In this document: positions 86 through 25,700 of the stretch, piece after piece
Position numbering within the stretch: position 1 is the stretch's first letter
Layout of the letters: every line of letters begins with the position of its first letter
Origin: Candidatus Omnitrophota bacterium
GTDB lineage: Bacteria > Omnitrophota > Gorgyraeia > Zapsychrales > JANLHA01
Reading direction: 5' to 3'
DNA length: 32,000 bases
Assembly: GCA_963662715.1 (NCBI GenBank)
Contig: OY759724.1
Span: forward strand, 3,328,634-3,360,633
Position numbers and translations under genes: made by a program
The notes under the pieces: generated by a model
What the model saw: only the letters and a program-made list of their open reading frames with translations
What the model was told of the DNA's origin: nothing
The model's database searches: none

Positions 86-1297
86 CTATCCGGCAAAAAC
101 ATCCAGCTGAAAAATGGGTAATAACATCGCGATAACAATAAACCCGATAACAGCCCCGATAATAACAATCATAAGCGGTTCCAGCATTGTCGTCATGATC
201 TTAATCTTTTCATTCGTCTCCTGCTCATAATTTTCTGCGATATCCAGCAAAGTTTCCCCTAACAGCCCTGATTCCTCTCCCACACTAATAAGATGACTGA
301 CCATTTCAGGGATCATCGGGGATTCCCCCAGAATTTCCCCAAAAGACCGCCCGGCCACCAACTCTTCCTGACACGTTTTAAGGTGATCCTGAAGGATAGA
401 ATTGCCGGTCACCGGGATGGACAGTTGAAAAGCCCTGACGACAGGGACTCCGCTCTGAATAAGTAAACGCAAGGCCCTGGCAAAACGGGCTATCTCAAGT
501 TTCAGCAGAAAGTCCCCCCAAAAGGGAGTTGCCAGACTCAATTGATTAAGGAATAACCGTCCCGCGGAGGTTCTCGCCCACTGCTTCAACAGGGCCGTCA
601 GAACAATGACCGCCACCCCGCAGAAAAATCCGTACTGCAGCAAGAAATCACTCATATTCATAACCATCAGGGTCGGCGCCGGGAGGGTTTGGTTAAAATT
701 CTCATATAACGCCGTTATTTTCGGCATCACGTACGTTAAGGTGAAAATGATGGACGCGATACCAAAAACAAGCATAAAAAGAGGGTACGCAAGCGCAGAC
801 CGCACTTTTGATAGGATCTCTTCCTGCTGTTTCTGATATTCCGTGATACTCAGCAAAGACTCCTTCAAACGGCCGCTTTCTTCCCCGGCCTTCACGAGAG
901 TGACATATAACGGAGAAAATATTTTGGGATAATCCGCAAAGGATTCTGAAAGCGATTTACCTCCCCGCACCTTCGCCTGAATGGAATCGATGATAAAACG
1001 GGAATACGAATTCTTTGTCTGCTGGCTTAAGACTTCCAAGGCTCTTAAAATCGGGACCCCGGCCTTGATTAAACTGACGAGCTGCTTGCTGAAAAGGTAC
1101 CGCTCCTTTGAGCTGATCCGCCCGAAACGGTACGCCTTGCGGTCCGGCGCCGTTACCGGGGAGATTTCTTCAACGGAGACAGGAACGTAGCCCAGCTGAT
1201 GGACCTTTTCAATAGCGTCTTCCCGGCTTTCCGCTGTCAGACGTCCGACGATTGTCTCAGCGTTTTGTTGTTTGGCTTTATAATGATATTGTGGCAT
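86..1297 (-). CDS. Type II secretion / type IV pilus inner-membrane platform protein (GspF/PilC family)
   Basis: 403 aa, the typical length. Two T2SSF-type repeats are present (FSKQLVSLIKAGVPILRALEVL and FARALRLLIQSGVPVVRAFQL). There are three hydrophobic TM segments, including the hallmark C-terminal LEPLMIVIIGAVIGFIVIAMLLPIFQL. It lies directly downstream of a GspE-family ATPase. ATG with GGAAG upstream. Confidence 0.9.
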   Translation of the reverse strand: MPQYHYKAKQQNAETIVGRLTAESREDAIEKVHQLGYVPVSVEEISPVTAPDRKAYRFGRISSKERYLFSKQLVSLIKAGVPILRALEVLSQQTKNSYSRFIIDSIQAKVRGGKSLSESFADYPKIFSPLYVTLVKAGEESGRLKESLLSITEYQKQQEEILSKVRSALAYPLFMLVFGIASIIFTLTYVMPKITALYENFNQTLPAPTLMVMNMSDFLLQYGFFCGVAVIVLTALLKQWARTSAGRLFLNQLSLATPFWGDFLLKLEIARFARALRLLIQSGVPVVRAFQLSIPVTGNSILQDHLKTCQEELVAGRSFGEILGESPMIPEMVSHLISVGEESGLLGETLLDIAENYEQETNEKIKIMTTMLEPLMIVIIGAVIGFIVIAMLLPIFQLDVFAG

Positions 1298-1331: not shown

Positions 1332-3548
1332 TTAACTTTCCTGGTTTTGCTGCTTCCCTTTTTTCCGTTGTTCCCGGACAAAATGATTAATATGAACACG
1401 GTCGGCGCTCGAAATATCCAGATAATAAACGACAATGTTAAACATCGCTGAAAGGTTGTCGTCTTCAACACGGCAAACCCGGGCCAGACAATTGACCCGT
1501 TTTTCCGCTCCCGGCAATTGGATGCGAAGGTCAACGATAGCCCCGACCGGGAGCGTGTAGCCGGAGACGAAACGCAGTCCTCCGGCACTGATGTCGCGCG
1601 TCACAGAAGCGTGCTCGACCTGGTCATAAAACAATTTCAACGGGTTTTTCGGATCCTGCCGTACGATCGAGTACCGTATGCTGACCTTCTCCTCGGCCCG
1701 GTCATAAGCGCGTGAATTGTAGTCATCCTTGACCGAAAGGATTTCCTTGTTGATGACCCGGACATTTTCCGGGTTTTTGTTTAACCCTGTGACGATCAGG
1801 CCCTGCGACAAAGCCGGAGCTTCTTCACCTTGACTGAGATCATCTTTCACCGTAACGTTAATGACTTCGCCGGGGGTCGTAATCCCGGCCAGGACTTTTT
1901 GCCACCCATTCTGTCTCAATGTCGTCATACCCCGTTTAACGGCCAGCCGTTTAATCTGATCTGCACGCTGTTTCTCCAGGATGGCGCCACGGATATCTTC
2001 ATCAATAACCAGAATCTCATAAAGAGCCGTGCGGCCGTAATACCCTGTCTGATGACAGAAATCGCATCCCCGTCCCTGAAAAATTTTTATGTGACGCGGG
2101 TCCGTGATCCCCAGGGAAGCAGCCATCTCCTGCCTAATCTCCTGGGGCTGACTCAAATCTTCTTTTTTGCATTGAGGACAGATCGTCCGCACAAGCCGCT
2201 GCGCTATAAAAGCCTCTATGCTGGAAGACACCAGAAACGGCTCCATCCCCATTTCTATAAGCCGGGTGATTCCGCTGGAGGCATCATTGGTATGCAGGGT
2301 CGAAAAAACCAAATGTCCTGTTAAAGCCGTACGGATCGCGATTTCCGCTGTTTCAAGATCCCTGATCTCCCCGACCATGATAATGTCCGGATCATGCCGC
2401 AAAACACTTCTCAATCCCGTGGCAAAATCGAACTCCACCCGGGGATTGATTTGAATTTGCGTAATCCCCTCCATCTCATATTCCAGGGGATCCTCCAGTG
2501 TCACGATCTTTCTGTCGGGGGAATTGATCTCATGAAGACAGGCATAAAGCGTCGTTGTTTTTCCGCTGCCGGTCGGGCCGGTCACTAAAATGATCCCGTG
2601 CGGCCGTTTGACCAGATCACGGAAGACATCCAGGTTTTTCTGATCCAGCCCCAATTTCTCAAGGCTTAACAACATAACATTCGTGGGAAGAATACGGATC
2701 ACCATACTTTCGCCATGAGAAGTCGGGATCGTGGAAATACGAAGATCCAGGGTCTGTTCTTTGGTTCTAACGACCGCGCTGCCGTCCTGAGGAAGCCGTT
2801 TTTCAACAATACTGAGGTTGGCGATGATTTTAATTCTGGATATGATGGACGGCAGAAAACCTTTAACCGCCTGAGGAATATTGGCGTCGAGCAAACGTCC
2901 GTCTATGCGGTAACGCACCCGGACAATATTCCGGTAAGGCTCAATATGAATATCGGTCGCCCTTTTCTTATGGGCTTCCAGGAGAATCTGGTTAACTAAT
3001 CTTGTTATCGTAACTTCATCGGCACCTTCGTCCAGATCCTCAACCGCTGTTTCCGCCTGTCTTGAAGGGGCCGATTCCCTGGACAACCGCTCAAGAGTAT
3101 CAGCCGCCAGGCCGTAATATTTATTCAGAGCGTTCATAACATCAGCTTCCCTGGCAAGAACGATTTTCGGCTCCAAGGACAAATGCACCCGGATTTCATC
3201 CTGGGATTTGACATTCAGAGGATTGGCACAAGCCAAAAGAACGCTTTTGTCCGTTATCTTAACGGGCATAAACTTGTAATACCAGGCGAACCGGACAGGA
3301 ACCCGGGTCAGGACCGTTTGATCGACAGGATAACTCTGCAGGGAAATAATTTCAAGCTGATACAAATCCGAAAGAATCTGCAAAAGCTGATCTTCGGGAA
3401 GGATTTTCTTCTCCACGAGAATATCCTTAAGAGAAACAGGGGAATTCTCAACAGCGCGCAGCTGTTCTTCAACAAGCGCCCCTGTTAACAGGCCTCTTTT
3501 AACAAGTTCTTTAGCGAGTATTTTATCGGATTGCTTCATCGGGAACAC
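1332..3548 (-). CDS. GspE/PilB-family secretion/pilus-assembly ATPase with N-terminal T2SSE_N-like domain and C-terminal PilZ domain
   Basis: 738 aa. Walker A is LVTGPTGSGKTTT (about 2550-2583). Walker B/Asp box is DPDIIMVGEIRD and the His box is TGHLVFSTLHTN. The tetracysteine motif is CPQC...CDFC. The N-terminal helical repeats LAKELVKRGLLTGALVEEQL / LKDILVEKKILPEDQLLQIL are typical of T2SSE_N. The ORF-track start at 3548 is a GTG; an ATG at 3539 (MKQSDK...) is an alternative start. Confidence 0.9.
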   Translation of the reverse strand: MFPMKQSDKILAKELVKRGLLTGALVEEQLRAVENSPVSLKDILVEKKILPEDQLLQILSDLYQLEIISLQSYPVDQTVLTRVPVRFAWYYKFMPVKITDKSVLLACANPLNVKSQDEIRVHLSLEPKIVLAREADVMNALNKYYGLAADTLERLSRESAPSRQAETAVEDLDEGADEVTITRLVNQILLEAHKKRATDIHIEPYRNIVRVRYRIDGRLLDANIPQAVKGFLPSIISRIKIIANLSIVEKRLPQDGSAVVRTKEQTLDLRISTIPTSHGESMVIRILPTNVMLLSLEKLGLDQKNLDVFRDLVKRPHGIILVTGPTGSGKTTTLYACLHEINSPDRKIVTLEDPLEYEMEGITQIQINPRVEFDFATGLRSVLRHDPDIIMVGEIRDLETAEIAIRTALTGHLVFSTLHTNDASSGITRLIEMGMEPFLVSSSIEAFIAQRLVRTICPQCKKEDLSQPQEIRQEMAASLGITDPRHIKIFQGRGCDFCHQTGYYGRTALYEILVIDEDIRGAILEKQRADQIKRLAVKRGMTTLRQNGWQKVLAGITTPGEVINVTVKDDLSQGEEAPALSQGLIVTGLNKNPENVRVINKEILSVKDDYNSRAYDRAEEKVSIRYSIVRQDPKNPLKLFYDQVEHASVTRDISAGGLRFVSGYTLPVGAIVDLRIQLPGAEKRVNCLARVCRVEDDNLSAMFNIVVYYLDISSADRVHINHFVREQRKKGKQQNQES
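1368..1730 (-). other. PilZ-domain coding segment (putative c-di-GMP receptor) forming the C-terminal ~120 aa of the GspE/PilB ATPase
   Basis: RxxxR motif RAYDR (aa 613-617, codon R613 at 1710-1712) is followed 34 residues later by DxSxxG as DISAGG, then beta-rich LRFVSGYTLPVGAIVDLRIQL...ARVCRVE. This spacing and these motifs are canonical for PilZ. Confidence 0.7.
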
Positions 3549-3581: not shown

Positions 3582-5982
<2,401 letters not shown>

Positions 5983-5994
5983 AGCCTTTCATCC

Positions 5995-6753
5995 TTAACT
6001 CAGGATGCCCTTCTCCAATTTCTCTTTAACCTGTTCCCCGGTGTTATTCAGGGCGCTTTTTAAAGTGCCGTCCAGCGACAGGGTTCCGAATTTGCACAAA
6101 ATACCTCCGATAATACTTTGGTCAACTTTTTTGTCGATCTGCATATCCCTGTTAAGCCGCTTATTTAAAATATCGCGCAATCTCTGTTCCAGTTTTTCAT
6201 CCAAAGGACGGGCCGTCATGATTTCGATGGTGGTCACATCGTCAGCGATCATCCCGGTATCGACATTTTCCATATCATTGAAGAATTCCGAAATAATCGT
6301 CTCATCCAGGGCTTCAAAAGAACGGCTCGTGAAGAATTCTTCCATGAGCAGAATACAGTAATCAATGGCTTGCAGCTTCATCTCCTTTTCCAGTTCCAGC
6401 CGGACCTGGTCTTTCGTGTGATGGGCTTTATTGATAATTTCTTCCGCGTCCTGGCGCGCCTTTTGAATAATCTTCTCCCTTTCCTGGTTCGCTTTCTCCT
6501 CCGCGTCGTCTTTCATCTTAGCCACCAGGGCATCGGCTTCCTTTCTGCGCGTGACCAACTCTTCATTCGCTTCCTTGATTTTGGCATTCAGTTCGGTTTG
6601 TTTATTCCGGACGTCTTCCGTCTCTTTGTTCAGCCGGCCGACAGCCGTTTCCGTGTGCCTTGACATATAACGGATAAAAAAGAACCCCAGCACCCCGGTA
6701 AAAATCATCCCAAAAATCAATGCTTTAATAAGTAACATGGTTGCTTCACCCAT
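5995..6753 (-). CDS. Peripheral-stalk protein: b-like N-terminal TM helix plus charged coiled coil, fused to a delta/OSCP-like C-terminal domain
   Basis: 252 aa. The N-terminal TM is LLIKALIFGMIFTGVLGFFFI, followed by ~110 aa of K/E-rich helix (b-like). The C-terminal IEIMTARPLDEKLEQRLRDILNKRLNRDMQIDKKVDQSIIGGILCKFGTLSLDGTLKSAL matches the conserved delta C-terminal pattern (...V.SA..L....I...L.K.......D.SLIGG....G....DGS....L). Confidence 0.65.
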   Translation of the reverse strand: MGEATMLLIKALIFGMIFTGVLGFFFIRYMSRHTETAVGRLNKETEDVRNKQTELNAKIKEANEELVTRRKEADALVAKMKDDAEEKANQEREKIIQKARQDAEEIINKAHHTKDQVRLELEKEMKLQAIDYCILLMEEFFTSRSFEALDETIISEFFNDMENVDTGMIADDVTTIEIMTARPLDEKLEQRLRDILNKRLNRDMQIDKKVDQSIIGGILCKFGTLSLDGTLKSALNNTGEQVKEKLEKGILS

Positions 6754-6770
6754 AACAATCTCCTCATTGT

Positions 6771-6998
6771 TTATTCAGAAACTAATGCTTTAAAAAATGT
6801 TAATATCAGCGCAAAGGAAACGGTTTCAACAATAACTAGCTTCAGTAAAATACTCATTTGTATAGCCGGTGTCTTGCTGGGGGCCCGGCCTAACCGGTTA
6901 ATAAGCTGCACCCCCACCCAAGCGGCGCCGATACAGGGGATAATAATCAAAATCCAGAAAATGATAATAAAAACCAGGGCAACATTCGCCATAAACAC
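6771..6998 (-). CDS. Divergent F-type ATPase c-subunit paralog (c')
   Basis: 75 aa forming a two-TM hairpin. The polar loop is RLGRAPSK (R-x-P, like the canonical R-Q/N-P). There is a membrane-embedded carboxylate in TM2 (LVIVETVSFALIL). It lies directly downstream of the other c-like gene. Confidence 0.6.
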   Translation of the reverse strand: MFMANVALVFIIIFWILIIIPCIGAAWVGVQLINRLGRAPSKTPAIQMSILLKLVIVETVSFALILTFFKALVSE

Positions 6999-7016: not shown

Positions 7017-7238
7017 TTACTTTCCAAAAAGCTGAAAAATAACTAATATCGCGATAACGGAAATGGCTTCGACAAAAATAAGCATGACGACCATTCCCAT
7101 AAAAATTTTCGATGCCGCTGAAGGATTCCGGCTCAAAGCCTTAATAACAGCATACCCTAAAACAGCGATAACAATGGAAGGGCCCAAGACAGCGATCAAC
7201 ATAATGGAGACAATTAATAAGGTTTCTGCCCACTGCAC
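7017..7238 (-). CDS. atpE: F-type ATPase c subunit (rotor ring proteolipid)
   Basis: 73 aa forming a two-TM hairpin. The loop is ALSRNPSAAS (R-N-P) and the conserved TM2 carboxylate lies in MLIFVEAISVIAIL. GTG start with AAGGAG 7 nt upstream. Confidence 0.75.
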   Translation of the reverse strand: MQWAETLLIVSIMLIAVLGPSIVIAVLGYAVIKALSRNPSAASKIFMGMVVMLIFVEAISVIAILVIFQLFGK

Positions 7239-9306: not shown

Positions 9307-10689
9307 TTACTCCTCCGCAGCCCCTTCTTCTCCCGGTTTGGGAACGACCCGGATTCCCCCACCGTCTTTAACAGCGAGATCTTCTCCCATTTTCCCAGAG
9401 CGCTTCGCCCACAGCACAAAATGAATGGTTGTGAATGTTGCGACAAAAATGATCGTCCCAAAAACAATCTTCCACGTCATGGTAACGGAAATCCCTCGCT
9501 TAAATATCGCATCGGATAATGCGGACAGCCCTCGCAGCGCTTTTAAGCGCTGCAACACGTTTTGAACCTTTCCGACTTCTATATCTCTCAACTTTTTAGC
9601 CCGGACGATACTCATCATTTTTTCTAATCTTTCGACATCCTTTTTCGCCTCATCATATCTCTTTTCATTCAGCCGAAATATTCCGATATGCTGTTCAATA
9701 GGCAATTCCAAAGCCTTTGATTCTTTGATGGCTTTGACCCTCTCCTGAATTTCTTCAAACAAATACGTGGCACTCTGTTCATATATTGTTTCCTTTAATT
9801 CCCCCATAGCGAGATCCGCCCTCACCTGCAGAGCCTCAGCCTTGTTCTGGGGGAAGTCCCATATATCTTTTATCAATATTTCATACGTCTTTTTTTCTCC
9901 GGGGTTAAACTTTTCTTCCTTTGTTAAGAACGCCTGTTTCTTTTTTTCATCAAACCGGACATCAAAATCCTTTTTCTCAACGATATCCCCTTCCCGCACC
10001 TCTGCCGGCAAATAATGTTTATGTTTGATTTCCTTCAGCTCCTCATGCGGATTCTGAACCTCAATAATAAACTTAACCAGCTTTCTCTGCTCAATTTCAT
10101 CCAAGGCTTTTGATTCGTGTTCAAGGTAATCAAGATCATAGGCATTGTTCCGGATTTTCTCCAGAGCGGCTTTATAAGCGCGGTATTCTTCGATACGACG
10201 GTCTATATTATCGGAATAACTCTCCTGCTGGCCATAAATAAAATCAATGTCCTTGATCATCTGATCCCGGGCCTTGACCGCATAATCATAATTCTCACTG
10301 CCTTCCAGGAGTTTTAAATTCTCTTCAACCTGATTCTTCAGGACATTAATCTCTTCCTCCGTAATACGCCAGACATCTCTCACGACCACTTTAAAAGTCT
10401 TGGACTCTTTAGCATTAAATTGCATCTTCTTACTGACAAAATACAATCCCTTATCAACATCATAATCCACATCCAGATCACCTGTACTTACGATATCCTC
10501 CGGCTGCAATTCATCGGGCAGGTAGTACTTAACATCTATTTCTTTAGAGTCTGTTTCCGAAGCATTCACGGCAATAAAACGGATGGCAACCTGCGCATAA
10601 GCCAGCAGAGGCTGCACGAGCAAAAGGAGGAAAAACAGCCATGCGACAAACCTCTTCTTCATCCAATACATCATCTTCACCCCGGACAC
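9307..10689 (-). CDS. Exported, C-terminally membrane-anchored coiled-coil protein with an internal tandem duplication; function unknown
   Basis: 460 aa. The signal-peptide-like N-terminus is MKKRFVAWLFFLLLLVQPLLAYA-QV. Two homologous ~80-aa modules (aa ~34-115 and ~204-285, e.g. KEIDVKYYLPDELQPEDIV...FNAKESKTFKVVVRDVW vs KEIKHKHYLPAEVREGDIV...FNPGEKKTYEILIKDIW) are each followed by K/E-rich helices. The TM is WKIVFGTIIFVATFTTIHFVLWA (9409-9477), followed by a 33-aa acidic tail. The track start (10689) is a GTG; ATGs at 10674 and 10662 (MKKRF...) are more plausible starts. Confidence 0.75.
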   Translation of the reverse strand: MSGVKMMYWMKKRFVAWLFFLLLLVQPLLAYAQVAIRFIAVNASETDSKEIDVKYYLPDELQPEDIVSTGDLDVDYDVDKGLYFVSKKMQFNAKESKTFKVVVRDVWRITEEEINVLKNQVEENLKLLEGSENYDYAVKARDQMIKDIDFIYGQQESYSDNIDRRIEEYRAYKAALEKIRNNAYDLDYLEHESKALDEIEQRKLVKFIIEVQNPHEELKEIKHKHYLPAEVREGDIVEKKDFDVRFDEKKKQAFLTKEEKFNPGEKKTYEILIKDIWDFPQNKAEALQVRADLAMGELKETIYEQSATYLFEEIQERVKAIKESKALELPIEQHIGIFRLNEKRYDEAKKDVERLEKMMSIVRAKKLRDIEVGKVQNVLQRLKALRGLSALSDAIFKRGISVTMTWKIVFGTIIFVATFTTIHFVLWAKRSGKMGEDLAVKDGGGIRVVPKPGEEGAAEE

Positions 10690-10721: not shown

Positions 10722-13700
10722 CTATTCAGCACTTTCAAACCAAGTTTTAACCACGACTTCATCTGTCTCTATGGCTTCCTTCAGAGCATTCAATTTGGCA
10801 TTAATCTCATCCAGTTTGGAGTATATCTTTTCATCTTCCCCGGCCTCTTCTTCCGTCAAATCCTCAACAGTCATGTCCGAATCCCCCAACCCTAAAGCCT
10901 CTGCCGCTTCATTCACGAAATTCGTTAAAGTTGACAATATCTGGGAGGCCACGTTATTAGCTGAAACCTGCTCTTCCGAAATAGTCGTCATAGACGTTTT
11001 TAATTCCGTAAGAGTGGATTCCAATTGTTTAAGTTTGTTGTAAGTGTCCGGGCTCTGTCCGGCGGCACCCAGCTCATCCCGGATACTTTGGGCCTCTGTT
11101 AATGCTGCGCCCGCGCTGCTTTTGGCCGAATCCACATTCGTTTTGATCTCTTCCAGTTTACTCAACTCCCCAAAAACTGTTTCCGAAGACTCATCATCCT
11201 CATAGATTCCGACCAGGACCTCTAAAGTATCCACATACTCAATAATTTCCTGCAAGTTACCAAAAACCGTATCTGCTGAAGACGTGTCTGTGGCTGTCCC
11301 AATAAGCGTCGTCAGGGATGTAATATTATCGTTAAGGGTGGTCACGTCCAAATCCTGTAAAGATTCAATAGCCGTAGTAAGCGCCGTAACGTCTAAACCG
11401 TTAAGAAGACCAAACAGTGTCCCGTCAGCCGCCGTATCAGCAGGATCCCCAATGTTATTATTCAGCGTCGTTACGGTTGTCAATATGGAGGCGACATTGG
11501 CGACCAAAGTCTGCGCATTGTCTGCTAAATAAGCGATGTCACTCCAATTAATATTTGCAGAAGTCATGGCAGATAAATCAGACCAGTTGATTCCCGCCGT
11601 AGATGTAATTCCCAAATCAACCCAGTTGACTCCTGCCCCCGTCATTTCCGTTAGATCCAGCCAGTTAACCGCAACATTTGTCATACTGCTCATATCTGTC
11701 CAATTGACGGCAGCAGACGACATGACAGCCAAATCCTGCCAATTAATTCCCGCATCGCTCATCACATCAATATCCAGCCAGTTAACTCCGGAGCCGGATA
11801 AAACTCCGATACTGGACCAATTAACACCTGCCGATGCCATCACCCCGACATCCTGCCAGTTAACCCCTGCACGGCTTAGGCTGTTCATATCATTCCAATT
11901 AATACCGGCTCGAGTTAAATCATTAATCGATGTCCAATTAACACCACTTGTCGTGAGCGTCTGCATATCCTCCCAGTTGATCCCGGCCAAAGTCAAAGTA
12001 CTTATATCATACCAGTTGATGCCGGAAGACGAGAGAACTCCCAAATTCGTCCAGTTGATCCCTGAAGCGCTCATTTCATTAACATTATCCCAATTGATGC
12101 CGGCCTCGGATAAAGAATCAATACTATCCCAGTTGATTCCCGTACTGCTCATAAGATCTATACTTGTCCAATTAATACCTCTACTTGTCATCACCTCAAG
12201 ATCCTGCCAGTTAATTCCCACATCCGACATCACCTCGATATCCAGCCAGTTGATCCCCGCATCACTCAGCATATTGATACTGCTCCAATTGACTCCTGAA
12301 TCACTTAACACATCAATGTCTGCCCAGTTGATCCCTGCATCACTTAACACATCAATATCTTTCCAGTTTATGCCGAATCCGCTCATTATACCTATATCTA
12401 ACCAATTCACCCCGGCGTCGCTCATATCATTAATGCTTTCCCAGTTTATACCCGCATTAGCTAGTTCTCCGATATTTGTCCAATTAATACCTGTGGTAGA
12501 CAGTTCGTTAATATTATTCCAATTGATCCCGATATCCGACATTCTACCGATATCAGACCAATTAATACCTTGCGTTGACATTTCTGATATATTAGTCCAG
12601 TTAATATTTGAACTTGACATTTCATCAATGCTGAGCCAATTAACTCCGGAATCTGATAATTCACTGATATTGGTCCAATTAATTTGCTGACTCGACAACA
12701 CATCCAGATCTATCCAGTTAATCCCCGCATCACTCATCTCGTTAATACTCAGCCAATTAATGCCTGTCTCACTCATAGAACTGATATCATTCCAATTAAT
12801 ACCACTACTGGTTAACTCCTCGATGTTATACCAGTTAACAGCAGCACTACTCATTACATCGATATCCAGCCAGTTGATCCCCGCTTCACTTAACACATCC
12901 AAATCCTTCCAATTAATTCCCGCATCGCTTAACACGTCAATATCCAGCCAGTTGATCCCTGACGTACTCATAAGCCCTAGATGACTCCAGTTTATCCCCG
13001 TATCACTCATCACATTGATATCCTGCCAGTTGATCCCTGCCTCACTCATGTCATTCACGCTTACCCAGTTGATCCCCATATCACTCAGAACATTGATATC
13101 CTGCCAGTTAACTCCTGCATCACTTAATTCCGCAATACTCGTCCAGTTGATCCCCGTGTCCGAAAGCTCACTGATGTTCTCCCAGTTGATCCCCGTGTCC
13201 GACATCTCACTGATGTTCTCCCAGTTGATTCCCGTATCCGACAGCTCGCTGATGTTCTCCCAGTTGATCCCCGTGTCCGACATCTCGCTGATGTTCTCCC
13301 AGTTCACCCCGCTTGAGGACATCTCCCCGATGTTCACCCAATTGATCCCCGTCGTTGTCAATTCACTAATATTGCTCCAATTCACTCCGCTCGATGTCAT
13401 CTCCCCAATATTAACCCAGTTGATCCCCGTAGCACTCATATCCCCGATATTCACCCAATTGATCCCCATATCACTCATCACATTTATGTCCTGCCAGTTG
13501 ATCCCCGTATCGCTCAGCACATCAATATCCAGCCAGTTGATCCCCGCATCGCTCAACACATCAATGTCCAGCCAATTGATCCCCGCGTCACTCATCACAT
13601 TGATATCCTGCCAGTTGACTCCTGCATCACTTAATTCCGCAATACTCGTCCAGTTGATCCCCGTGTCCGACATCTCGCTGATATTCTCCCAGTTGATCCC

Positions 13701-16700
13701 CGTATCCGACAGCTCGCTGATACTCTGCCAGTTGATTCCCGTATCCGACAACTCGCTGATATTCTCCCAGTTCACCCCGCTTGAGGACATCTCCCCGATG
13801 TTCACCCAATTGATCCCCGTCGTTGTCAATTCACTAATATTGCTCCAATTCACTCCGCTCGATGTCATCTCCCCAATATTAACCCAGTTGATCCCCGTAG
13901 CACTCATGTCACTGATGTTTGTCCAATTAATCCCTCTGTCACTCATCACATCAATATCCTGCCAATTGATTCCCGCTTCACTTAAATCATTCACACTCAC
14001 CCAGTTGATCCCCGCGTCACTTAATACCCCTAAGTCCTGCCAATTAATCCCTGTATCACTTAATACATCCACATCCAGCCAGTTGATCCCCGCATCACTC
14101 ATCACATCGATATCCAGCCAGTTGATCCCCGCATCGCTCATATCACTCACACTCACCCAATTGATCCCCGTATCACTTAACACATCCACATCCAGCCAGT
14201 TGATTCCCGCGTCACTCAAAATATCAAAATCTGCCCAGTTAATTCCTGCATCACTCAATACATCCACATCCAGCCAGTTGATCCCCGCGTCACTTAACAC
14301 ATCGATATCTGTCCAATTGACTCCCGCCTCTGTCATTTCTCCTATATTCAACCAGTTTATCCCTTGCGTTGTCATCTCTCCGATGTTTGCCCAATTCACT
14401 CCCGTTGTACTCATCTCGCTGATGTTCTCCCAGTTGATCCCCGTGTCCGATAACTCACTGATATTTTCCCAGTTCACCCCGCTTGAGGACATCTCCCCGA
14501 TATTCGCCCAGTTGATCCCCGTACTGCTCATCTCACTGATATTGACCCAATTCACTCCCCGCGAGGACATCTCCCCGACATTTGCCCAATTGATCCCCGT
14601 CGTACTCATCTCGCTGATATTTTCCCAGTTAATTCCTGTATCTGACAACTCGCTGATGTTCTCCCAGTTAATCCCCGTATCTGACATCTCGCTGATGTTC
14701 TCCCAGTTGATTCCCGTGTCCGATAACTCGCTGATATTTTCCCAATTGATTCCCGTTGTACTCATCTCACTGATATTTTCCCAATTTACTCCGCTTGATG
14801 ACAACTCTCCAATATTTACCCAATTAATCCCTGCGGCACTCATATCATAAACATTAGTCCAATTAATCCCCTTATCACTCATCACATCGATGTCCGACCA
14901 ATTGATTCCTGATTCACTCATATCTCCAATACTCGTCCAATTAATCCCTGCCGTTGTCAATTCTCCAATATTTACCCAGTTGATCCCCGTCGTACTCATC
15001 TCGCTGATATTTTCCCAGTTGATCCCCGTATCCGACAGCTCGCTGATGTTCTCCCAGTTGATCCCCGTATCCGACATCTCGCTGATGTTCTCCCAGTTGA
15101 TCCCCGTATCCGACAGCTCGCTGATGTTCTCCCAGTTGATCCCCGTATCCGACATCTCGCTGATATTCTCCCAGTTGATCCCCGTATCCGACAATTCGCT
15201 GATATTCTCCCAGTTGATCCCCGTACTGCTCATCTCGCTGATATTTTCCCAGTTAATCCCTGTATCACTCATCACATCGATGTCCAGCCAGTTGATCCCC
15301 GCATCACTCATATCATTCACACTCACCCAGTTGATCCCCATATCACTCATCACATTGATATCCTGCCAGTTGATCCCTGCCTCACTTAACTCCGCAATAC
15401 TCATCCAGTTGATCCCCGTATCCGACAGTTCACTGATGTTCTCCCAGTTGATCCCCGTACTGCTCATCTCGCTGATGTTCTCCCAGTTGATCCCCGTATC
15501 CGACATTTCACTGATGTTTTCCCAGTTAATCCCCGTGTCCGACATCTCACTGATATTCTCCCAGTTGATCCCCGTATCCGACAGCTCGCTGATGTTCTCC
15601 CAGTTGATCCCCGTACTGCTCATTTCGCTGATATTTTCCCAGTTCACTCCGCTTGACGATAACTCCCCGATATTCGTCCAATTAATTCCCGCAACACTCA
15701 TATCATTCATATTGGTCCAGTTAATCCCCGTATCACTCAATACATCCACGTCTAACCAATTAATCCCCGCATCACTTAAATCATTCACGCTCACCCAGTT
15801 GATCCCCGCATCACTCATTACATCAATATCCAGCCAGTTGATCCCCGTCTCTGTCATAACATCCAAATCCTTCCAATTAATCCCCGCCGTTGTTAGCTCC
15901 CCTAAATCAACCCAATTAACTCCTGAACTGCTTAATTCATCTATCCCGATCCAGTTAATTCCTGTATCACTCATCACATCGATATCCAGCCAGTTGATCC
16001 CCGCATCACTCATATCATTCACACTCACCCAGTTGATCCCCATATCACTCATCACATTTATATCCTGCCAGTTAACTCCTGCGTCACTTAATTCCGCAAT
16101 ACTCATCCAGTTAATCCCCGTATCCGAAAGCTCACTGATGTTCTCCCAGTTGATCCCCGTGTCCGACATCTCACTGATGTTCTCCCAGTTGATCCCCGTA
16201 TCCGACAGCTCACTGATGTTCTCCCAGTTGATCCCCGTGTCCGACATCTCACTGATATTCTCCCAGTTAATCCCCGTATCCGACAGCTCGCTGATGTTCT
16301 CCCAGTTGATCCCCGTACTGCTCATCTCGCTGATATTTTCCCAGTTCACTCCGCTTGACGATAACTCCCCGATATTCGTCCAATTAATTCCCGCAGCACT
16401 CATATCATTCATATTGGTCCAGTTAATCCCCGTATCACTCAACACATCCACGTCTAACCAATTAATCCCCGCATCACTTAAATCATTCACACTCACCCAG
16501 TTGATCCCCGCATCACTCATCACATCAATATCCAGCCAGTTGATCCCCGTATCTGTCAGAACATCCAAATCCTTCCAATTAATCCCCGCCGTTGTTAGCT
16601 CCCCTAAATCAACCCAATTAACTCCTGAACTGCTTAATTCATCTATCCCGATCCAGTTAATTCCTGTATCACTCATCACATCGATATCCAGCCAGTTGAT

Positions 16701-19700
16701 CCCTGCTTCACTCATATCATTCACACTCACCCAGTTGATCCCCATATCACTCATCACATTGATATCCTGCCAGTTAACTCCTGCGTCACTTAATTCCGCA
16801 ATACTCATCCAGTTGATCCCCGTATCCGAAAGCTCACTGATGTTCTCCCAGTTGATCCCCGTGTCCGACATCTCACTGATGTTCTCCCAGTTGATTCCCG
16901 TATCCGACAGCTCGCTGATGTTCTCCCAGTTGATCCCCGTGTCCGACATCTCGCTGATGTTCTCCCAGTTCACCCCGCTTGAGGACATCTCCCCGATGTT
17001 CACCCAATTGATCCCCGTCGTTGTCAATTCACTAATATTGCTCCAATTCACTCCGCTCGATGTCATCTCCCCAATATTAACCCAGTTGATCCCCGTAGCA
17101 CTCATATCCCCGATATTCACCCAATTGATCCCCATATCACTCATCACATTTATGTCCTGCCAGTTGATCCCCGTATCGCTCAGCACATCAATATCCAGCC
17201 AGTTGATCCCCGCGTCACTCATCACATCTATGTCCAGCCAATTGATCCCCGCATCACTCATCACATCTATGTCCAGCCAATTGATCCCCGTTTCTGTTAA
17301 CTCCCCAATATTTAACCAATTAATTCCTCCCGTACTCATCTCACTGATATTCTCCCAGTTCACCCCGCTTGAGGACATCTCTCCGATATTCACCCAATTC
17401 ACACCCGTTGTGCTCATCTCGCTGATATTCTCCCAGTTCACCCCGCTTGAGGACATCTCCCCGATGTTCACCCAATTGATTCCCGTCGTCGTTAATTCAC
17501 TAATATTGCTCCAATTCACTCCGCTCGATGTCATCTCCCCAATATTAACCCAGTTGATCCCCGTAGCACTCATGTCACTGATGTTTGTCCAATTAATCCC
17601 TCTGTCACTCATCACATCAATATCCTGCCAATTGATTCCCGCTTCACTTAAATCATTCACACTCACCCAGTTGATCCCCGCGTCACTTAATACCCCTAAG
17701 TCCTGCCAATTAATCCCTGTATCACTTAATACATCCACATCCAGCCAGTTGATCCCCGCATCACTCATCACATCGATATCCAGCCAGTTGATCCCCGCAT
17801 CGCTCATATCACTCACACTCACCCAATTGATCCCCGTATCACTTAACACATCCACATCCAGCCAGTTGATTCCCGCGTCACTCAAAATATCAAAATCTGC
17901 CCAGTTAATTCCTGCATCACTCAATACATCCACATCCAGCCAGTTGATCCCCGCGTCACTTAACACATCGATATCTGTCCAATTGACTCCCGCCTCTGTC
18001 ATTTCTCCTATATTCAACCAGTTTATCCCTTGCGTTGTCATCTCTCCGATGTTTGCCCAATTCACTCCCGTTGTACTCATCTCGCTGATGTTCTCCCAGT
18101 TGATCCCCGTGTCCGATAACTCACTGATATTTTCCCAGTTCACCCCGCTTGAGGACATCTCCCCGATATTCGCCCAGTTGATCCCCGTACTGCTCATCTC
18201 ACTGATATTGACCCAATTCACTCCCCGCGAGGACATCTCCCCGACATTTGCCCAATTGATCCCCGTCGTACTCATCTCGCTGATATTTGTCCAATTAATC
18301 CCTCTGTCACTCATCACATCGATATCGTCCCAATTGATCCCCGCATCACTCAAATCATTCACACTCACCCAGTTAATCCCCGCGTCTGCAAGAACTCCGA
18401 GATCTCGCCAATTAACCCCCGTATCACTCAATACATCAATGTCCAGCCAGTTAATCCCCGCATCACTCAATACATCGATGTCCAGCCAGTTGATCCCCGC
18501 ATCACTTAAGTCATTCATACTTACCCAATTTATCCCGGTATCACTTAGCACATCGATATCATTCCAATTTATCCCTGCCTCACTCATATCTCCAATATTT
18601 GTCCAATTAATTCCCGCTCTTGTAAAGACACCTAGATCACTCCAATTAATTCCTGAACGAGTTAATTCATTCATTTCAACCCAGTTGATCCCTGTATCAC
18701 TCATCACATCGATGTCCAGCCAGTTGATCCCCGCATCACTCATATCATTCACACTCACCCAGTTGATCCCCATATCACTCATCACATTGATATCCTGCCA
18801 GTTGATCCCTGCCTCACTTAACTCCGCAATACTCATCCAGTTGATCCCCGTATCCGACAGTTCACTGATGTTCTCCCAGTTGATCCCCGTACTGCTCATC
18901 TCGCTGATGTTCTCCCAGTTGATCCCCGTATCCGACATTTCACTGATGTTTTCCCAGTTAATCCCCGTGTCCGACATCTCACTGATATTCTCCCAGTTGA
19001 TCCCCGTATCCGACAGCTCGCTGATGTTCTCCCAGTTGATCCCCGTACTGCTCATTTCGCTGATATTTTCCCAGTTCACTCCGCTTGACGATAACTCCCC
19101 GATATTCGTCCAATTAATTCCCGCAACACTCATATCATTCATATTGGTCCAGTTAATCCCCGTATCACTCAATACATCCACGTCTAACCAATTAATCCCC
19201 GCATCACTTAAATCATTCACGCTCACCCAGTTGATCCCCGCATCACTCATTACATCAATATCCAGCCAGTTGATCCCCGTCTCTGTCATAACATCCAAAT
19301 CCTTCCAATTAATCCCCGCCGTTGTTAGCTCCCCTAAATCAACCCAATTAACTCCTGAACTGCTTAATTCATCTATCCCGATCCAGTTAATTCCTGTATC
19401 ACTCATCACATCGATATCCAGCCAGTTGATCCCCGCATCACTCATATCATTCACACTCACCCAGTTGATCCCCATATCACTCATCACATTTATATCCTGC
19501 CAGTTAACTCCTGCGTCACTTAATTCCGCAATACTCATCCAGTTAATCCCCGTATCCGAAAGCTCACTGATGTTCTCCCAGTTGATCCCCGTGTCCGACA
19601 TCTCACTGATGTTCTCCCAGTTGATCCCCGTATCCGACAGCTCACTGATGTTCTCCCAGTTGATCCCCGTGTCCGACATCTCACTGATATTCTCCCAGTT

Positions 19701-22700
19701 AATCCCCGTATCCGACAGCTCGCTGATGTTCTCCCAGTTGATCCCCGTACTGCTCATCTCGCTGATATTTTCCCAGTTCACTCCGCTTGACGATAACTCC
19801 CCGATATTCGTCCAATTAATTCCCGCAGCACTCATATCATTCATATTGGTCCAGTTAATCCCCGTATCACTCAACACATCCACGTCTAACCAATTAATCC
19901 CCGCATCACTTAAATCATTCACACTCACCCAGTTGATCCCCGCATCACTCATCACATCAATATCCAGCCAGTTGATCCCCGTATCTGTCAGAACATCCAA
20001 ATCCTTCCAATTAATCCCCGCCGTTGTTAGCTCCCCTAAATCAACCCAATTAACTCCTGAACTGCTTAATTCATCTATCCCGATCCAGTTAATTCCTGTA
20101 TCACTCATCACATCGATATCCAGCCAGTTGATCCCTGCTTCACTCATATCATTCACACTCACCCAGTTGATCCCCATATCACTCATCACATTGATATCCT
20201 GCCAGTTAACTCCTGCGTCACTTAATTCCGCAATACTCATCCAGTTGATCCCCGTATCCGAAAGCTCACTGATGTTCTCCCAGTTGATCCCCGTGTCCGA
20301 CATCTCACTGATGTTCTCCCAGTTGATTCCCGTATCCGACAGCTCGCTGATGTTCTCCCAGTTGATCCCCGTGTCCGACATCTCGCTGATGTTCTCCCAG
20401 TTCACCCCGCTTGAGGACATCTCCCCGATGTTCACCCAATTGATCCCCGTCGTTGTCAATTCACTAATATTGCTCCAATTCACTCCGCTCGATGTCATCT
20501 CCCCAATATTAACCCAGTTGATCCCCGTAGCACTCATATCCCCGATATTCACCCAATTGATCCCCATATCACTCATCACATTTATGTCCTGCCAGTTGAT
20601 CCCCGTATCGCTCAGCACATCAATATCCAGCCAGTTGATCCCCGCGTCACTCATCACATCTATGTCCAGCCAATTGATCCCCGCATCACTCATCACATCT
20701 ATGTCCAGCCAATTGATCCCCGTTTCTGTTAACTCCCCAATATTTAACCAATTAATTCCTCCCGTACTCATCTCACTGATATTCTCCCAGTTCACCCCGC
20801 TTGAGGACATCTCTCCGATATTCACCCAATTCACACCCGTTGTGCTCATCTCGCTGATATTCTCCCAGTTCACCCCGCTTGAGGACATCTCCCCGATGTT
20901 CACCCAATTGATTCCCGTCGTCGTTAATTCACTAATATTGCTCCAATTCACTCCGCTCGATGTCATCTCCCCAATATTAACCCAGTTGATCCCCGTAGCA
21001 CTCATGTCACTGATGTTTGTCCAATTAATCCCTCTGTCACTCATCACATCAATATCCTGCCAATTGATTCCCGCTTCACTTAAATCATTCACACTCACCC
21101 AGTTGATCCCCGCGTCACTTAATACCCCTAAGTCCTGCCAATTAATCCCTGTATCACTTAATACATCCACATCCAGCCAGTTGATCCCCGCATCACTCAT
21201 CACATCGATATCCAGCCAGTTGATCCCCGCATCGCTCATATCACTCACACTCACCCAATTGATCCCCGTATCACTTAACACATCCACATCCAGCCAGTTG
21301 ATTCCCGCGTCACTCAAAATATCAAAATCTGCCCAGTTAATTCCTGCATCACTCAATACATCCACATCCAGCCAGTTGATCCCCGCGTCACTTAACACAT
21401 CGATATCTGTCCAATTGACTCCCGCCTCTGTCATTTCTCCTATATTCAACCAGTTTATCCCTTGCGTTGTCATCTCTCCGATGTTTGCCCAATTCACTCC
21501 CGTTGTACTCATCTCGCTGATGTTCTCCCAGTTGATCCCCGTGTCCGATAACTCACTGATATTTTCCCAGTTCACCCCGCTTGAGGACATCTCCCCGATA
21601 TTCGCCCAGTTGATCCCCGTACTGCTCATCTCACTGATATTGACCCAATTCACTCCCCGCGAGGACATCTCCCCGACATTTGCCCAATTGATCCCCGTCG
21701 TACTCATCTCGCTGATATTTGTCCAATTAATCCCTCTGTCACTCATCACATCGATATCGTCCCAATTGATCCCCGCATCACTCAAATCATTCACACTCAC
21801 CCAGTTAATCCCCGCGTCTGCAAGAACTCCGAGATCTCGCCAATTAACCCCCGTATCACTCAATACATCAATGTCCAGCCAGTTAATCCCCGCATCACTC
21901 AATACATCGATGTCCAGCCAGTTGATCCCCGCATCACTTAAGTCATTCATACTTACCCAATTTATCCCGGTATCACTTAGCACATCGATATCATTCCAAT
22001 TTATCCCTGCCTCACTCATATCTCCAATATTTGTCCAATTAATTCCCGCTCTTGTAAAGACACCTAGATCACTCCAATTAATTCCTGAACGAGTTAATTC
22101 ATTCATTTCAACCCAGTTGATCCCTGTATCACTCATCACATCGATGTCCAGCCAGTTGATCCCCGCATCACTCATATCATTCACACTCACCCAGTTGATC
22201 CCCATATCACTCATCACATTGATATCCTGCCAGTTGATCCCTGTGTCACTTAACACATCGATATCCATCCAGTTGATCCCTGCTTCGCTTAACTGCCCGA
22301 TATTTTGCCAATTAATCCCTGATCTACTTAACTCACTGATATTCTCCCAGTTGATCCCCGTATCCGACATTTCACTGATGTTTTCCCAGTTAATCCCCGT
22401 GTCCGACATCTCACTGATATTCTCCCAGTTAATCCCCGTATCCGACAGCTCGCTGATGTTCGCCCAGTTAATCCCCGTACTGCTCATCTCACTGATATTC
22501 TCCCAGTTCACCCCGCTTGATGACATCTCCCCGATATTCAACCAGTTGATCCCCGTACTGCTCATCTCCCCAATATTTAACCAGTTGATCCCTCGGTCAC
22601 TTAACACATCTATATCCAGCCAGTTGATCCCTGCATTCGTCATATCACTCATACTCACCCAATTCATCCCTGCATCACTCATCACATCGATGTCCTCCCA

Positions 22701-25700
22701 GTTAATCCCCGCATCACTCAATACATCAATATCTTCCCAGTTGATCCCCGCCGTTGTTAGCTCCCCTAAATCAACCCAATTAACTCCTGCCCGGCTCAAC
22801 TCGTCTATTCCCGACCAATTGATCCCTGCATCACTTAACACATCTATGTCCGCCCAGTTGATCCCCGCTTCACTCATATCATTCACACTCACCCAATTGA
22901 TTCCCATATCACTCATCACATTTATATCCTGCCAGTTGATCCCCGTATCACTTAACACATCGATATCCGTCCAGTTGATCCCTGCTTCGCTCAGAACATC
23001 CAAATCTAACCAGTTAACCCCTGCATCACTTAACACATCTATGTCCGCCCAGTTGATCCCCGCTTCACTCATCACATCTACGTCCAACCAGTTTATCCCC
23101 GCGTCACTTAAATCATTCACACTCACCCAGTTGATCCCCGCATCACTCAATACATCTACGTCCTGCCAGTTGATCCCCGCTTCACTTAACACATCCAAAT
23201 CTAACCAGTTAACCCCCGCATCACTCAATACATCTACGTCCTGCCAGTTGATCCCCGCGTTCGTCATATCACTCATATTTACCCAGTTCATCCCCGCATC
23301 ACTCATCACATCCACATCCAGCCAATTGATCCCCGCGTCACTCATATCATTCACACTCACCCAGTTGATCCCCATATCACTCATCACATTTATATCCTGC
23401 CAGTTGATCCCCGTATCTGAGAGTACATCCAAGTCCACCCAGTTGATTCCCGCATCCGATAATACATCTAAATCCAACCAATTAACCCCTGCATCACTCA
23501 GCGCATCCACATCCTGCCAGTTAATCCCCGCATCACTTAACACATCTATGTCCGCCCAGTTGATTCCCGCGTCACTCATATCATTCACACTCACCCAGTT
23601 GATCCCCGCCTCACTCAGTACATTTATATCCTCCCAATTAATCCCCGTATCACTTAACACATCGATATCCGCCCAGTTGATTCCCGCGTCACTTAACTCC
23701 CCGATATTCGCCCAGTTAATTCCTTCTGTACTCATCTCACTGATATTCGCCCAGTTCACCCCGCTTGACGACATCTCCCCAATATTCAACCAGTTCACTC
23801 CTGTCGTACTCATCTCACTGACATTCGCCCAGTTCACCCCGCTTGACGACATCTCCCCGATATTCAACCAGTTGATCCCCGTATCCGACATCTCACTGAT
23901 ATTCGCCCAGTTCACCCCACTCGTGGATAACTCCCCGATATTCAACCAGTTCACTCCTGTCGTACTCATTTCACTGACATTCGTCCAGTTGATCCCCGCA
24001 TCACTCAATACATCCACATCCTGCCAGTTGATCCCCGCGTCACTCATATCATTCACACTCACCCAGTTGATCCCCGCATCACTCAATACATTTATATCCT
24101 CCCAGTTAATCCCCGTATCACTTAACACATCTATATCCGCCCAGTTGATTCCCGCGTCACTTAATTCCCCGATACTCTCCCAGTTAATTCCTGTCGTACT
24201 CATTTCACTAATATTAATCCAATTAATCCCATTTGATGACATCTCCCCGATATTCGCCCAATTGATACCCGTGTCCGACATCTCGCTGATATTCTCCCAG
24301 TTCACCCCACTCGTGGATAACTCCCCGATATTCAACCAGTTCACTCCTGTCGTACTCATCTCGCTGATATTCTCCCAATTTACCCCACTCGTGGATAACT
24401 CCCCGATATTCAACCAGTTCACTCCTGTCGTACTCATTTCACTGACATTCGTCCAGTTGATCCCCACATCACTCATCACATCTATGTCCTGCCAATTGAT
24501 CCCCGCTTCACTTAAATCATTCACACTCACCCAATTAATTCCTGCATCTGACAAAACGTCCACATCCAGCCAGTTTATCCCCGTATCACTTAACACATCC
24601 AGGTCCACCCAATTAATTCCTGCATCTGACAGAACGTCCACATCCAGCCAGTTGATCCCCGCATTCGTCATATCACTCATACTCACCCAGTTCATCCCTG
24701 CATCACTCATCACATCAATATCCGCCCAGTTGATCCCCGCATCACTTAAATCATTCACACTCACCCAATTGATTCCCGCGTCACTTAATACATCAATATC
24801 ATCCCAGTTGATCCCCGTATCACTTAACACATCGATATCCAGCCAGTTGATCCCTGCTTCACTCAATACTTCTACGTCCAGCCAGTTGATCCCCGCATTC
24901 GTCATATCACTCATACTCACCCAGTTCATCCCCGCATCACTCATCACATCGATGTCCTGCCAATTAACCCCCGTATCACTTAACACATCGATATCCGTCC
25001 AGTTAATTCCTGCTTCACTCAATGCATTAATATCCGTCCAGTTGATCCCCGTATCACTTAACACATCCAGGTCCACCCAGTTAATTCCTGCATCACTCAG
25101 TATATCTACGTCCAGCCAGTTGATCCCCGCATTCGTCATATCACTCATACTCACCCAGTTCATCCCTGCATCACTCATCACATCAATATCCGTCCAGTTG
25201 ATCCCCGCGTCACTTAGATCATTCACACTCACCCAATTAATTCCTGCATCACTTAACACATCGATGTCCTGCCAGTTTATCCCCGTATCACTCAGCACAT
25301 CTATGTCCGCCCAGTTGATTCCCGCGTCACTCAATACTTCTACGTCCAGCCAGTTTATCCCCGCATTCGTCATATCACCCATGCTCACCCAGTTCATCCC
25401 CGCGTCACTCATCACATCGATATCCTGCCAGTTTATCCCCGTATCACTTAACACATCGATATCCGCCCAGTTGATCCCCGCGTCACTTAACACATCCAGA
25501 TCCAGCCAATTAATCCCCGTATCACTTAATACATCCAAATCCAACCAGTTAACCCCTGCATCACTCATCACATCCACATCCAGCCAGTTGATCCCCGCGT
25601 CACTTAACACATCTATATCCGCCCAGTTGATCCCTGCTTCACTCATCACATCGATGTCCTGCCAGTTGATCCCTGCGTCACTTAATTCCCCAATACTTTC

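Follow-up and report, generated by a model that had tools for sequence, protein, structure and literature searches.

The 32,000-nucleotide (nt) stretch of Candidatus Omnitrophota DNA analysed here (from contig OY759724.1 and referred to below as the window) carries on its minus strand a gene for a four-part protein. Its N-domain is degenerate and of MshEN type, a complete PilB/GspE (T2SSE) ATPase follows, and a variable linker leads from there to a canonical PilZ domain. A preliminary description of this stretch had proposed a GspE/PilB secretion ATPase fused to a C-terminal PilZ domain, and had raised the possibility that input by the second messenger cyclic di-GMP (c-di-GMP) had moved to that domain from the N-terminus. 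The known routes by which c-di-GMP reaches type IV pilus and type II secretion system (T2SS) motors go through an N-terminal MshEN domain or separate PilZ/FimX partners, and a motor that bears a canonical PilZ domain in cis at its C-terminus and has a dead MshEN site would be a third solution. Here we show that the PilB~PilZ fusion is a real and old arrangement, and a conserved, apparently undescribed part of a large Omnitrophota gene cluster. The features of the gene are given below, with positions in amino acids (aa) for the protein; family counts refer to the 120 best matches in a collection of 5.8 billion proteins, which share 53-79% identity with the window protein and are 711-760 aa long.

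1332..3548, minus strand: open reading frame (ORF) of the PilB~PilZ fusion, 738 aa (ORF listing, Pfam and relatives).
3363..3548, minus strand: N-terminal four-helix-bundle subdomain, aa 1-62, the equivalent of MshEN_N, with degenerate c-di-GMP motifs.
3105..3362, minus strand: MshEN domain PF05157, aa 63-148 (Pfam, 57.3 bits), homologous to the ND0/ND1 region of PilB.
1863..3023, minus strand: T2SSE ATPase core PF00437, aa 176-562 (Pfam, 443.5 bits).
2556..2579, minus strand: Walker A motif GPTGSGKT, aa 324-331, in 120/120 family members.
2055..2180, minus strand: tetracysteine zinc motif CPQC...CDFC, aa 457-498 (CPQC at 457, CDFC at 495), in 120/120 members.
1761..1838, minus strand: hypervariable, indel-prone linker, aa ~571-596 (family alignment).
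1335..1760, minus strand: PilZ domain as modelled, aa 597-738 (Pfam, AlphaFold2 and Foldseek).
1698..1712, minus strand: RAYDR, the RxxxR c-di-GMP motif, aa 613-617, with both Arg in 120/120 members.
1578..1595, minus strand: DISAGG, the [D/N]xSxxG c-di-GMP motif, aa 652-657 (family alignment).

The C-terminal domain is a canonical PilZ domain, as its profile match, its motifs and its predicted fold all show. When the whole protein was searched with Pfam, aa 634-725 matched PF07238 at 48.8 bits against a gathering cutoff of 22.5 (E 1e-12), the significant match that the preliminary description had predicted, and the C-terminal 170 aa alone still scored 47.1 bits. An AlphaFold2 model of aa 597-738, based on an alignment of 63 sequences, was obtained with a mean predicted local distance difference test score (pLDDT) of 91.7 and a predicted template-modelling score of 0.84; it shows the expected PilZ beta-barrel, in which seven beta strands are followed by a long C-terminal helix. 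The top 31 Foldseek matches to this model in the PDB are PilZ domains only, most of them crystallised with c-di-GMP. The best is MotI/DgrA (5vx6, E 8e-7, template-modelling score 0.65), and Alg44 (4rt0), PA PilZ (4xrn), BcsA (4p00), YcgR (5y6g), PA0012 (8u0i) and MrkH are among the others. The two motifs, whose spacing of 34 aa was the same on re-examination, are nearly invariant across the family. R613 and R617 are each found in every member, position 652 is Asp in 110 and Asn in 9 of the 120 sequences, S654 is kept in 119 and G657 in all, and a regular expression combining both motifs matches 118 members. The surrounding positions vary, the linker is hypervariable, and divergent representatives at 43-48% identity likewise keep both motifs. 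As judged from this alignment, purifying selection acts on the residues of the PilZ domain that are predicted to contact c-di-GMP.

The linker that connects this domain to the ATPase is about 26 aa long in the window protein and 25-60 aa across relatives, and is probably a flexible tether. It had earlier been put at about 45 aa; a linker is indeed present, but the variable stretch covers only aa ~571-596. At the other end of the gene the true start is probably the ATG at 3539 (M4) rather than the GTG at 3548, because the family consensus opens MxKQxDK, and the protein would then have 735 aa. The sequence upstream reads ...GGGGTGTTCCCGATGAAGCAA.

The ATPase core is complete. In addition to the invariant Walker A and Cys4 motifs, the Walker B motif with its catalytic Glu and the His box are each present in 115/120 family members, and with its catalytic and zinc motifs intact the protein is apparently an active ATPase. 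Among solved structures of PilB and GspE, which match at E 1e-115 to 1e-125, the nearest chains come from Geobacter PilB, Thermus PilF, Myxococcus PilB and Vibrio GspE (all E 1e-120 to 1e-125); Geobacter PilB (5zfr) matches aa 15-570 with an E-value of 2e-125, and none of the solved PilB/GspE chains that were matched reaches beyond about aa 580 of this protein. On these sequence grounds it is a PilB/GspE-class type IV filament assembly ATPase. Of the original label, 'GspE/PilB secretion ATPase', the superfamily membership stands on the T2SSE score and the motifs, whereas the designation as GspE does not: the protein scores 571.7 bits with the GspE equivalog TIGR02533, under its curated cutoff of 630.25, and also falls short of the type IV-A PilB equivalog TIGR02538 (551.7 bits, curated cutoff 675.65), and the neighbouring genes combine T2SS-like (GspG, GspK) with type 4a pilus (T4aP)-like (PilM-PilN) parts.

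At the N-terminus the fold of a c-di-GMP sensor is recognisable. Besides the Pfam match to PF05157, the N-domain is matched over aa 3-145 by the structure of the MshE N-domain (5htl, E 2.5e-6, and E 2e-5 in a separate comparison) and is homologous to the PilB ND0/ND1 structures 7lkm/7lko (E 3e-4). The c-di-GMP site of MshEN consists of two copies of the motif RLGxx(L/V/I)(L/V/I)xxG(L/V/I)(L/V/I)xxxxLxxxLxxQ with a five-residue spacer, and the key contacts are made by the Arg, Gly and Gln (Wang et al., 2016; PMC5013675). In the window protein the corresponding strings read ILAKELVKRGLL and SLKDILVEKKIL, as first reported, and I10/A12/V33 occupy the R/G/Q positions of motif I while S39/K41/K48/L62 occupy the R/G/G/Q positions of motif II. 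HMMER alignments to solved structures place K-RLG-AALLDAGLL of Thermus PilF opposite K-ILA-KELVKRGLL of this protein and Q-RLG-SILVKNGLV...LSKQ of Geobacter PilB opposite V-SLK-DILVEKKIL...LSDL, with the motif Gln opposite a Leu. Across the 120-member alignment, motif I has I/L/T/V, A/S/Q/L and A/I/L/V at the key positions, and motif II has S/P/N/T, K/R/S/H and L/A/V/I. A relaxed form of the motif of Wang et al. was found in 0/120 family members, with Geobacter PilB and domain 2 of Thermus PilF matching as controls, and the NCBIfam c-di-GMP motif model NF053729 gave 16.7 bits, below its threshold of 38. The observation that no RLG signature is evident at the N-terminus therefore extends to the whole family: the N-domain is, as read from these alignments, of MshEN-type fold with its c-di-GMP motifs lost in all 120 members.

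The domain-architecture survey suggested at the outset revealed a conserved family. All 120 best database matches carry the precomputed Pfam set MshEN + T2SSE + PilZ, and every member with a named source is a Candidatus Omnitrophota metagenome-assembled genome (MAG). HMMER, run exhaustively against 1.84 billion 50%-identity representatives, identified 17,206 T2SSE-type proteins at E <= 1e-30, and among the best 150 of these, only six full-length representatives and two fragments extend through PilZ; both motifs are present in every one of the eight, and in two the insert separating them is longer. When 185,579 species-representative genomes were scanned with an alignment of the PilZ part only, 45 loci were obtained, in Omnitrophota MAGs or in MAGs auto-labelled 'uncultured Planctomycetales' or 'uncultured bacterium'. 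A word-index homolog search with the PilZ tail only gave 11 matches, mostly truncated fragments, and is no guide to distribution. The fusion is real, old and under selection, because the architecture is shared by 120/120 nearest proteins and because the ATPase and PilZ lie within one uninterrupted frame in 50/50 loci that hold both parts. As far as we can see it is confined to Omnitrophota.

How the PilZ domain was acquired can be approached through the 150 nearest representatives. Thirty of them have a relaxed MshEN motif and no PilZ, six have the PilZ motif pair and no MshEN motif, and 114 were scored with neither sensor, a class that includes P0135 and P0139, which also carry PilZ but outside the motif-spacing window of the count. 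No protein with both an MshEN motif and PilZ was seen among the 150, a mutual exclusivity that is suggestive. The closest PilZ-less relatives are also without the MshEN motif, and a degenerate MshEN domain is the commonest state in this set. It is most likely, as far as such sequence comparisons go, that PilZ was gained on an already non-sensing background, because the closest PilZ-less relatives mostly lack the MshEN motif too. A direct swap of sensors from MshEN to PilZ was set aside since most of the 150 neighbours hold neither. The proposal that c-di-GMP input had 'moved' is thus right in that a PilZ domain is present and the MshEN motifs are absent, but overstates the case in that most neighbours are without either sensor.

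The fusion gene is embedded in a cluster that runs from a giant protein of 13-aa repeats through a 460-aa protein (p460), an F-type-ATPase-like set and PilB~PilZ to GspF, pseudopilins, GspK and PilMN. In the window all genes of the cluster lie on the minus strand with gaps of at most 103 nt, in the order giant ORF, p460, alpha, epsilon, c, second c-like, b-delta fusion, gamma, beta, PilZ fusion and GspF:

86..1297, minus strand: GspF/PilC platform protein gene, 34 nt downstream of the fusion gene; directly downstream in 47/47 related loci.
3582..5102, minus strand: F-type ATPase beta-like subunit gene, 33-42 nt upstream of the fusion gene; directly upstream in 42/43 loci.
5131-5982, minus strand: F-type-ATPase-like gamma gene.
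5995-6753, minus strand: F-type-ATPase-like b-delta fusion gene.
6771-6998, minus strand: F-type-ATPase-like c' gene.
7017-7238, minus strand: F-type-ATPase-like c gene.
7309-7641, minus strand: F-type-ATPase-like epsilon gene.
7659-9203, minus strand: F-type-ATPase-like alpha gene.
9307..10689, minus strand: gene for p460, a conserved 460-aa bitopic protein, between the giant gene and the alpha gene.
10722..32000, minus strand: 3' part of the giant gene, with repeats and C-terminal domain; its frame stays open as far as the window edge.

Genomic context was compared using related loci, including those of the homologs P0082, P0089, P0133, P0135 and P0142. In a tblastn comparison with the proteins of the window, the same colinear order was found in 49 related loci wherever the contig is long enough; it is present in 45 species-level genomes, the loci L001-L050 and L052 share it, and members at 45-48% identity (L050 and L052) follow it as well. 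In the relatives the genes downstream of the fusion encode GspF, a Peptidase_MA_2 protein, a T2SSG-type major pseudopilin and two small N-methyl-type proteins, followed by T2SSK, a PilM-PilN fusion, one unassigned protein and a TPR protein. No minus-strand terminator-like site was found in any intergenic gap of the window cluster, and a promoter and terminator scan of the window gave counts within shuffle expectation and none in the intergenic gaps. The conserved cluster is apparently co-transcribed. No GGDEF, EAL or FimX-like gene was seen in it. That the 'whole locus' is placed under second-messenger control, as had been put forward, claims more than the data hold; what they establish is the fusion as a fixed part of a conserved, apparently co-transcribed cluster.

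Passages of Seymour et al. (2023; PMC10066038) describe a non-respiratory F-type ATPase gene set that adjoins T4aP genes in Omnitrophota, within 10 kb on 57/66 contigs, and propose for it a role in attachment or motility on host cells. The window cluster matches this locus, with the beta gene ending 33 nt from the fusion gene. The terms PilZ, c-di-GMP, GGDEF and diguanylate do not occur in the main text and 11 supplements of that study, and the passages on the locus mention neither the PilZ fusion, the giant repeat gene and p460 nor the absence of subunit a. Likewise, no fused PilB/GspE-PilZ is mentioned in a PilZ review (10.1101/814665), a PilZ similarity-network preprint, a 2024 review of PilB cofactors (PMC11656802) or a 2026 preprint on complete Omnitrophota genomes (10.64898/2026.06.07.730766).

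The fusion protein shares features with several known systems. MshE and PilB proteins with an MshEN domain (V. cholerae MshE, M. xanthus PilB, C. perfringens PilB2 and T. thermophilus PilF) belong to the same ATPase family with an N1D-N2D-CTD layout, and have in common with the predicted function of the fusion that c-di-GMP is sensed by the motor itself; their sensor, however, is a helical MshEN_N bundle at the N-terminus, whereas that of the fusion is a PilZ beta-barrel at the C-terminus. In the PilB-PilZ-FimX system of Xanthomonas citri (7LKO, 7LKM/N) c-di-GMP information reaches PilB through a PilZ-fold partner, and the N-domain of that PilB is homologous to the one in the fusion protein. 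The Xanthomonas PilZ is a separate, non-canonical, motif-less protein and c-di-GMP is sensed by the EAL domain of FimX, whereas the PilZ of the fusion stands in cis and keeps both motifs. Cellulose synthase BcsA and Alg44, both among the best fold matches, also carry a canonical PilZ domain fused to an output machine, which c-di-GMP thereby gates directly, but there the output is a glycosyltransferase or co-polymerase and here it is a hexameric T2SSE motor ATPase. YcgR and MotI (DgrA), the latter the closest fold match, are PilZ regulators of a motor too; they are free two-domain (PilZN + PilZ) inhibitors of the flagellar stator or rotor, whereas here a single PilZ domain is fused to a type IV filament ATPase.

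We propose, with a probability of roughly 0.72, that the tethered PilZ domain, for which binding is predicted, serves this type IV filament assembly ATPase as a c-di-GMP receptor of its own and licenses filament assembly. According to this model, c-di-GMP would be bound in the manner of solved PilZ complexes, across the RxxxR loop and DxSxxG strand, and the flexible linker would let the liganded domain reach the ATPase hexamer. There it would most plausibly dock on the degenerate ND0/ND1-type N-domain or on the cytosolic face of the C-terminal ATPase ring, and docking would alter the activity of the hexamer or its engagement with the GspF/PilM platform. There are precedents for the individual steps: MshE and PilB are controlled by c-di-GMP through MshEN (PMC5013675; PMC11656802), and the Xanthomonas PilZ binds ND0/ND1 of PilB, with FimX in the complex raising PilB ATPase activity 3-fold (PMC8389850). 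The direction of the effect is the weakest step of the model. We favour activation, in which high c-di-GMP would license filament assembly, because pilus assembly is promoted by every c-di-GMP input to a PilB/MshE-type ATPase that has been characterised (PMC11656802). The ATPase is the only recognisable regulatory input in the cluster, so that gating it would determine what the pilus/secretion module as a whole puts out, possibly extending to deployment of the giant repeat protein. GGDEF domains and small pilZ genes have been reported in Omnitrophota, where they and T2SS-like loci are noted near giant genes of the phylum or within them (West-Roberts et al., preprint 10.1101/2023.11.21.568195); c-di-GMP signalling is plausible in the phylum because such domains and genes are found there.

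Several points weigh against this proposal. Conservation of the motifs predicts binding of c-di-GMP without proving it. The docking site is placed purely by analogy, and the Xanthomonas PilZ from which the analogy is drawn is non-canonical and binds PilB free of ligand. At least one distant paralog of the fusion (P0133) lies outside the cluster, so that the role of the domain need not be tied to the F-type ATPase module. Finally, the best structural match to the modelled domain is MotI/DgrA, with YcgR also among the matches. Both are PilZ proteins that inhibit the flagellar motor, and a brake would be equally compatible with the predicted fold.

Such a brake is the alternative that survives best, although we consider it unlikely. 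At high c-di-GMP, liganded PilZ would in this case inhibit the ATPase or release it from the platform, as YcgR and MotI act on the flagellar motor, and the conserved motifs fit inhibition as well as they fit activation. However, similarity of PilZ folds carries no information on the sign of regulation, and the characterised inputs to ATPases of this class, including that of Xanthomonas, all act in the opposite direction (PMC11656802; PMC8389850).

A more elaborate reading, which goes beyond the licensing of assembly and which we hold to be distinctly improbable, is that the cluster encodes a composite nanomachine, with the fusion as its regulatory hinge, in which c-di-GMP, acting through PilZ, couples or switches an F1-like rotary ATPase and the PilB/GspF motor in order to actuate the giant protein. 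The F1-like part would, just as doubtfully, comprise a c-ring and a b-delta stalk without subunit a, and it is no less speculative that the motors extrude or actuate a fibre-like repeat protein of more than 7,000 aa for attachment to host cells or movement on them. Such an assembly would be functionally reminiscent of the gliding apparatus of Mycoplasma mobile, which combines an F1-like ATPase with giant surface proteins.

A third possibility is that the PilZ domain is a ligand-independent adaptor, a docking module for the F1-like ATPase, PilM or the N-domain that acts like the PilZ proteins XAC1133 and PA2960 of Xanthomonas and Pseudomonas. The free PilZ of Xanthomonas binds PilB ND0/ND1 without ligand (PMC8389850), and the position of the fusion gene next to the beta-like subunit gene in nearly all loci invites a coupling role. 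PilZ proteins that serve only as adaptors, on the other hand, have lost RxxxR and DxSxxG (preprint 10.1101/814665), and because both motifs are kept here, essentially invariant in 120 sequences and down to about 45% identity amid variable surroundings, a pattern to be expected only of a binding site that is in use, an adaptor-only role is very unlikely. That the fusion is an artefact, in which the loss of a stop codon, or a mistake in assembly or gene calling, has fused a PilB gene with a separate small pilZ gene of the kind common near Omnitrophota giant genes, is ruled out by the identical architecture of the 120 nearest proteins, which come from many independent assemblies, and by the single frame of all 50 loci, while the several database entries that are PilZ-only fragments lie on contigs of 0.7-3.7 kb (except P0131), consistent with truncated genes.

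The fusion is also the first regulatory input that can be recognised in the conserved F-type ATPase/pilus cluster of Omnitrophota. Members of this phylum are almost entirely uncultured and probably host-dependent, and are thought to attach to or prey on other microbes; the fusion suggests how they switch an attachment machine on or off. In isolation, the protein could also be a compact system in which to study how a PilZ domain communicates with a hexameric secretion ATPase.

Some observations on relatives of the fusion concern proteins outside this arrangement. The paralog P0133 (L051, 3639-5882) shares 46% identity with the window protein and has intact RTYQR and DISAGG motifs; it comes from the same metagenome as L003 and is preceded by a gene whose TPR/transglutaminase-like product exceeds 1,100 aa, away from the ATPase-linked cluster. 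Among P0136-P0157, several close relatives of about 1,000 aa show two matched stretches and no PilZ and may, to judge by those stretches, hold two T2SSE domains, while other relatives in this range carry DUF4388.

The F-type-ATPase-like part of the cluster is itself unusual. Its genes follow the order alpha, epsilon, c, c', b-delta fusion, gamma, beta, and no gene for subunit a was found anywhere in the conserved cluster. Classical ion translocation requires subunit a. Both c-like proteins retain the membrane-embedded Glu (FVEAIS and IVETVS). Read from its GTG start, the beta-like subunit has an acidic N-terminal extension of about 50 aa rich in Ser, Pro and Glu, with the Pfam domains starting at aa 51; this low-complexity stretch may be genuine, or the start may have been called too far upstream. 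On the pilus side of the cluster, a Peptidase_MA_2 gene (L001 13335-14096 and equivalents) stands between the GspF and major pseudopilin genes in most loci; tblastn gave no match for it in L028, L035, L036, L039, L042, L046 and L048, in which the flanking genes are present.

The p460 protein belongs to no known family and gave no Pfam match. It has an N-terminal signal or anchor (aa 12-41), a single C-terminal transmembrane helix (aa 407-428), coiled-coil-like stretches and an internally duplicated module of about 55 aa (around aa 50-105 and 225-280), and its gene is present between the giant gene and the alpha gene in related loci with enough upstream sequence. We considered p460 as a candidate for the absent Fo subunit a and rejected it in view of its N-terminal anchor and one transmembrane helix, its large, soluble, duplicated middle part and its lack of a Pfam match.

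The giant ORF, open at the window edge, is more than 7,092 aa long. It is composed of 525 consecutive in-phase units of 13 residues with the consensus [A/T]G[I/V]NWx[D/N][I/V]x[V/E][L/M]S[D], in which Asn-Trp is invariant and 524/524 spacings are exactly 13, without a single indel, and ends in a non-repeat C-terminal domain of 272 aa. The visible part of the protein has no transmembrane segment and no Pfam family; for the repeats and the C-terminal domain Pfam returned nothing but noise below threshold, such as Lysostaphin_N (28 bits, cutoff 60), discarded as a chance match between 13-residue repeats. The giant protein belongs to the conserved cluster: in 34 related loci (34-73% identity) this C-terminal domain, with GINW repeats before it, is encoded directly upstream of p460. 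When 20 units were modelled with AlphaFold2 on an alignment of repeats taken from the window itself, the result was all-beta, with one strand per unit, and of low confidence: one model reached pLDDT 65, four about 35. Foldseek returned no significant match to this model (best E 0.33), and the weak matches, all to beta-helices or solenoids, are only a hint. At the DNA level the gene (~11800-32000) has a higher-order tandem unit of 3,432 nt, equal to 88 basic units, with exact matches of up to 4,121 nt, which reflects either a very recent amplification or a copy number in need of a check against raw long reads. Several related contigs begin inside the repeats of the giant gene, which suggests that these repeats break assemblies. 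GC skew in this region is extreme, at about -0.5.

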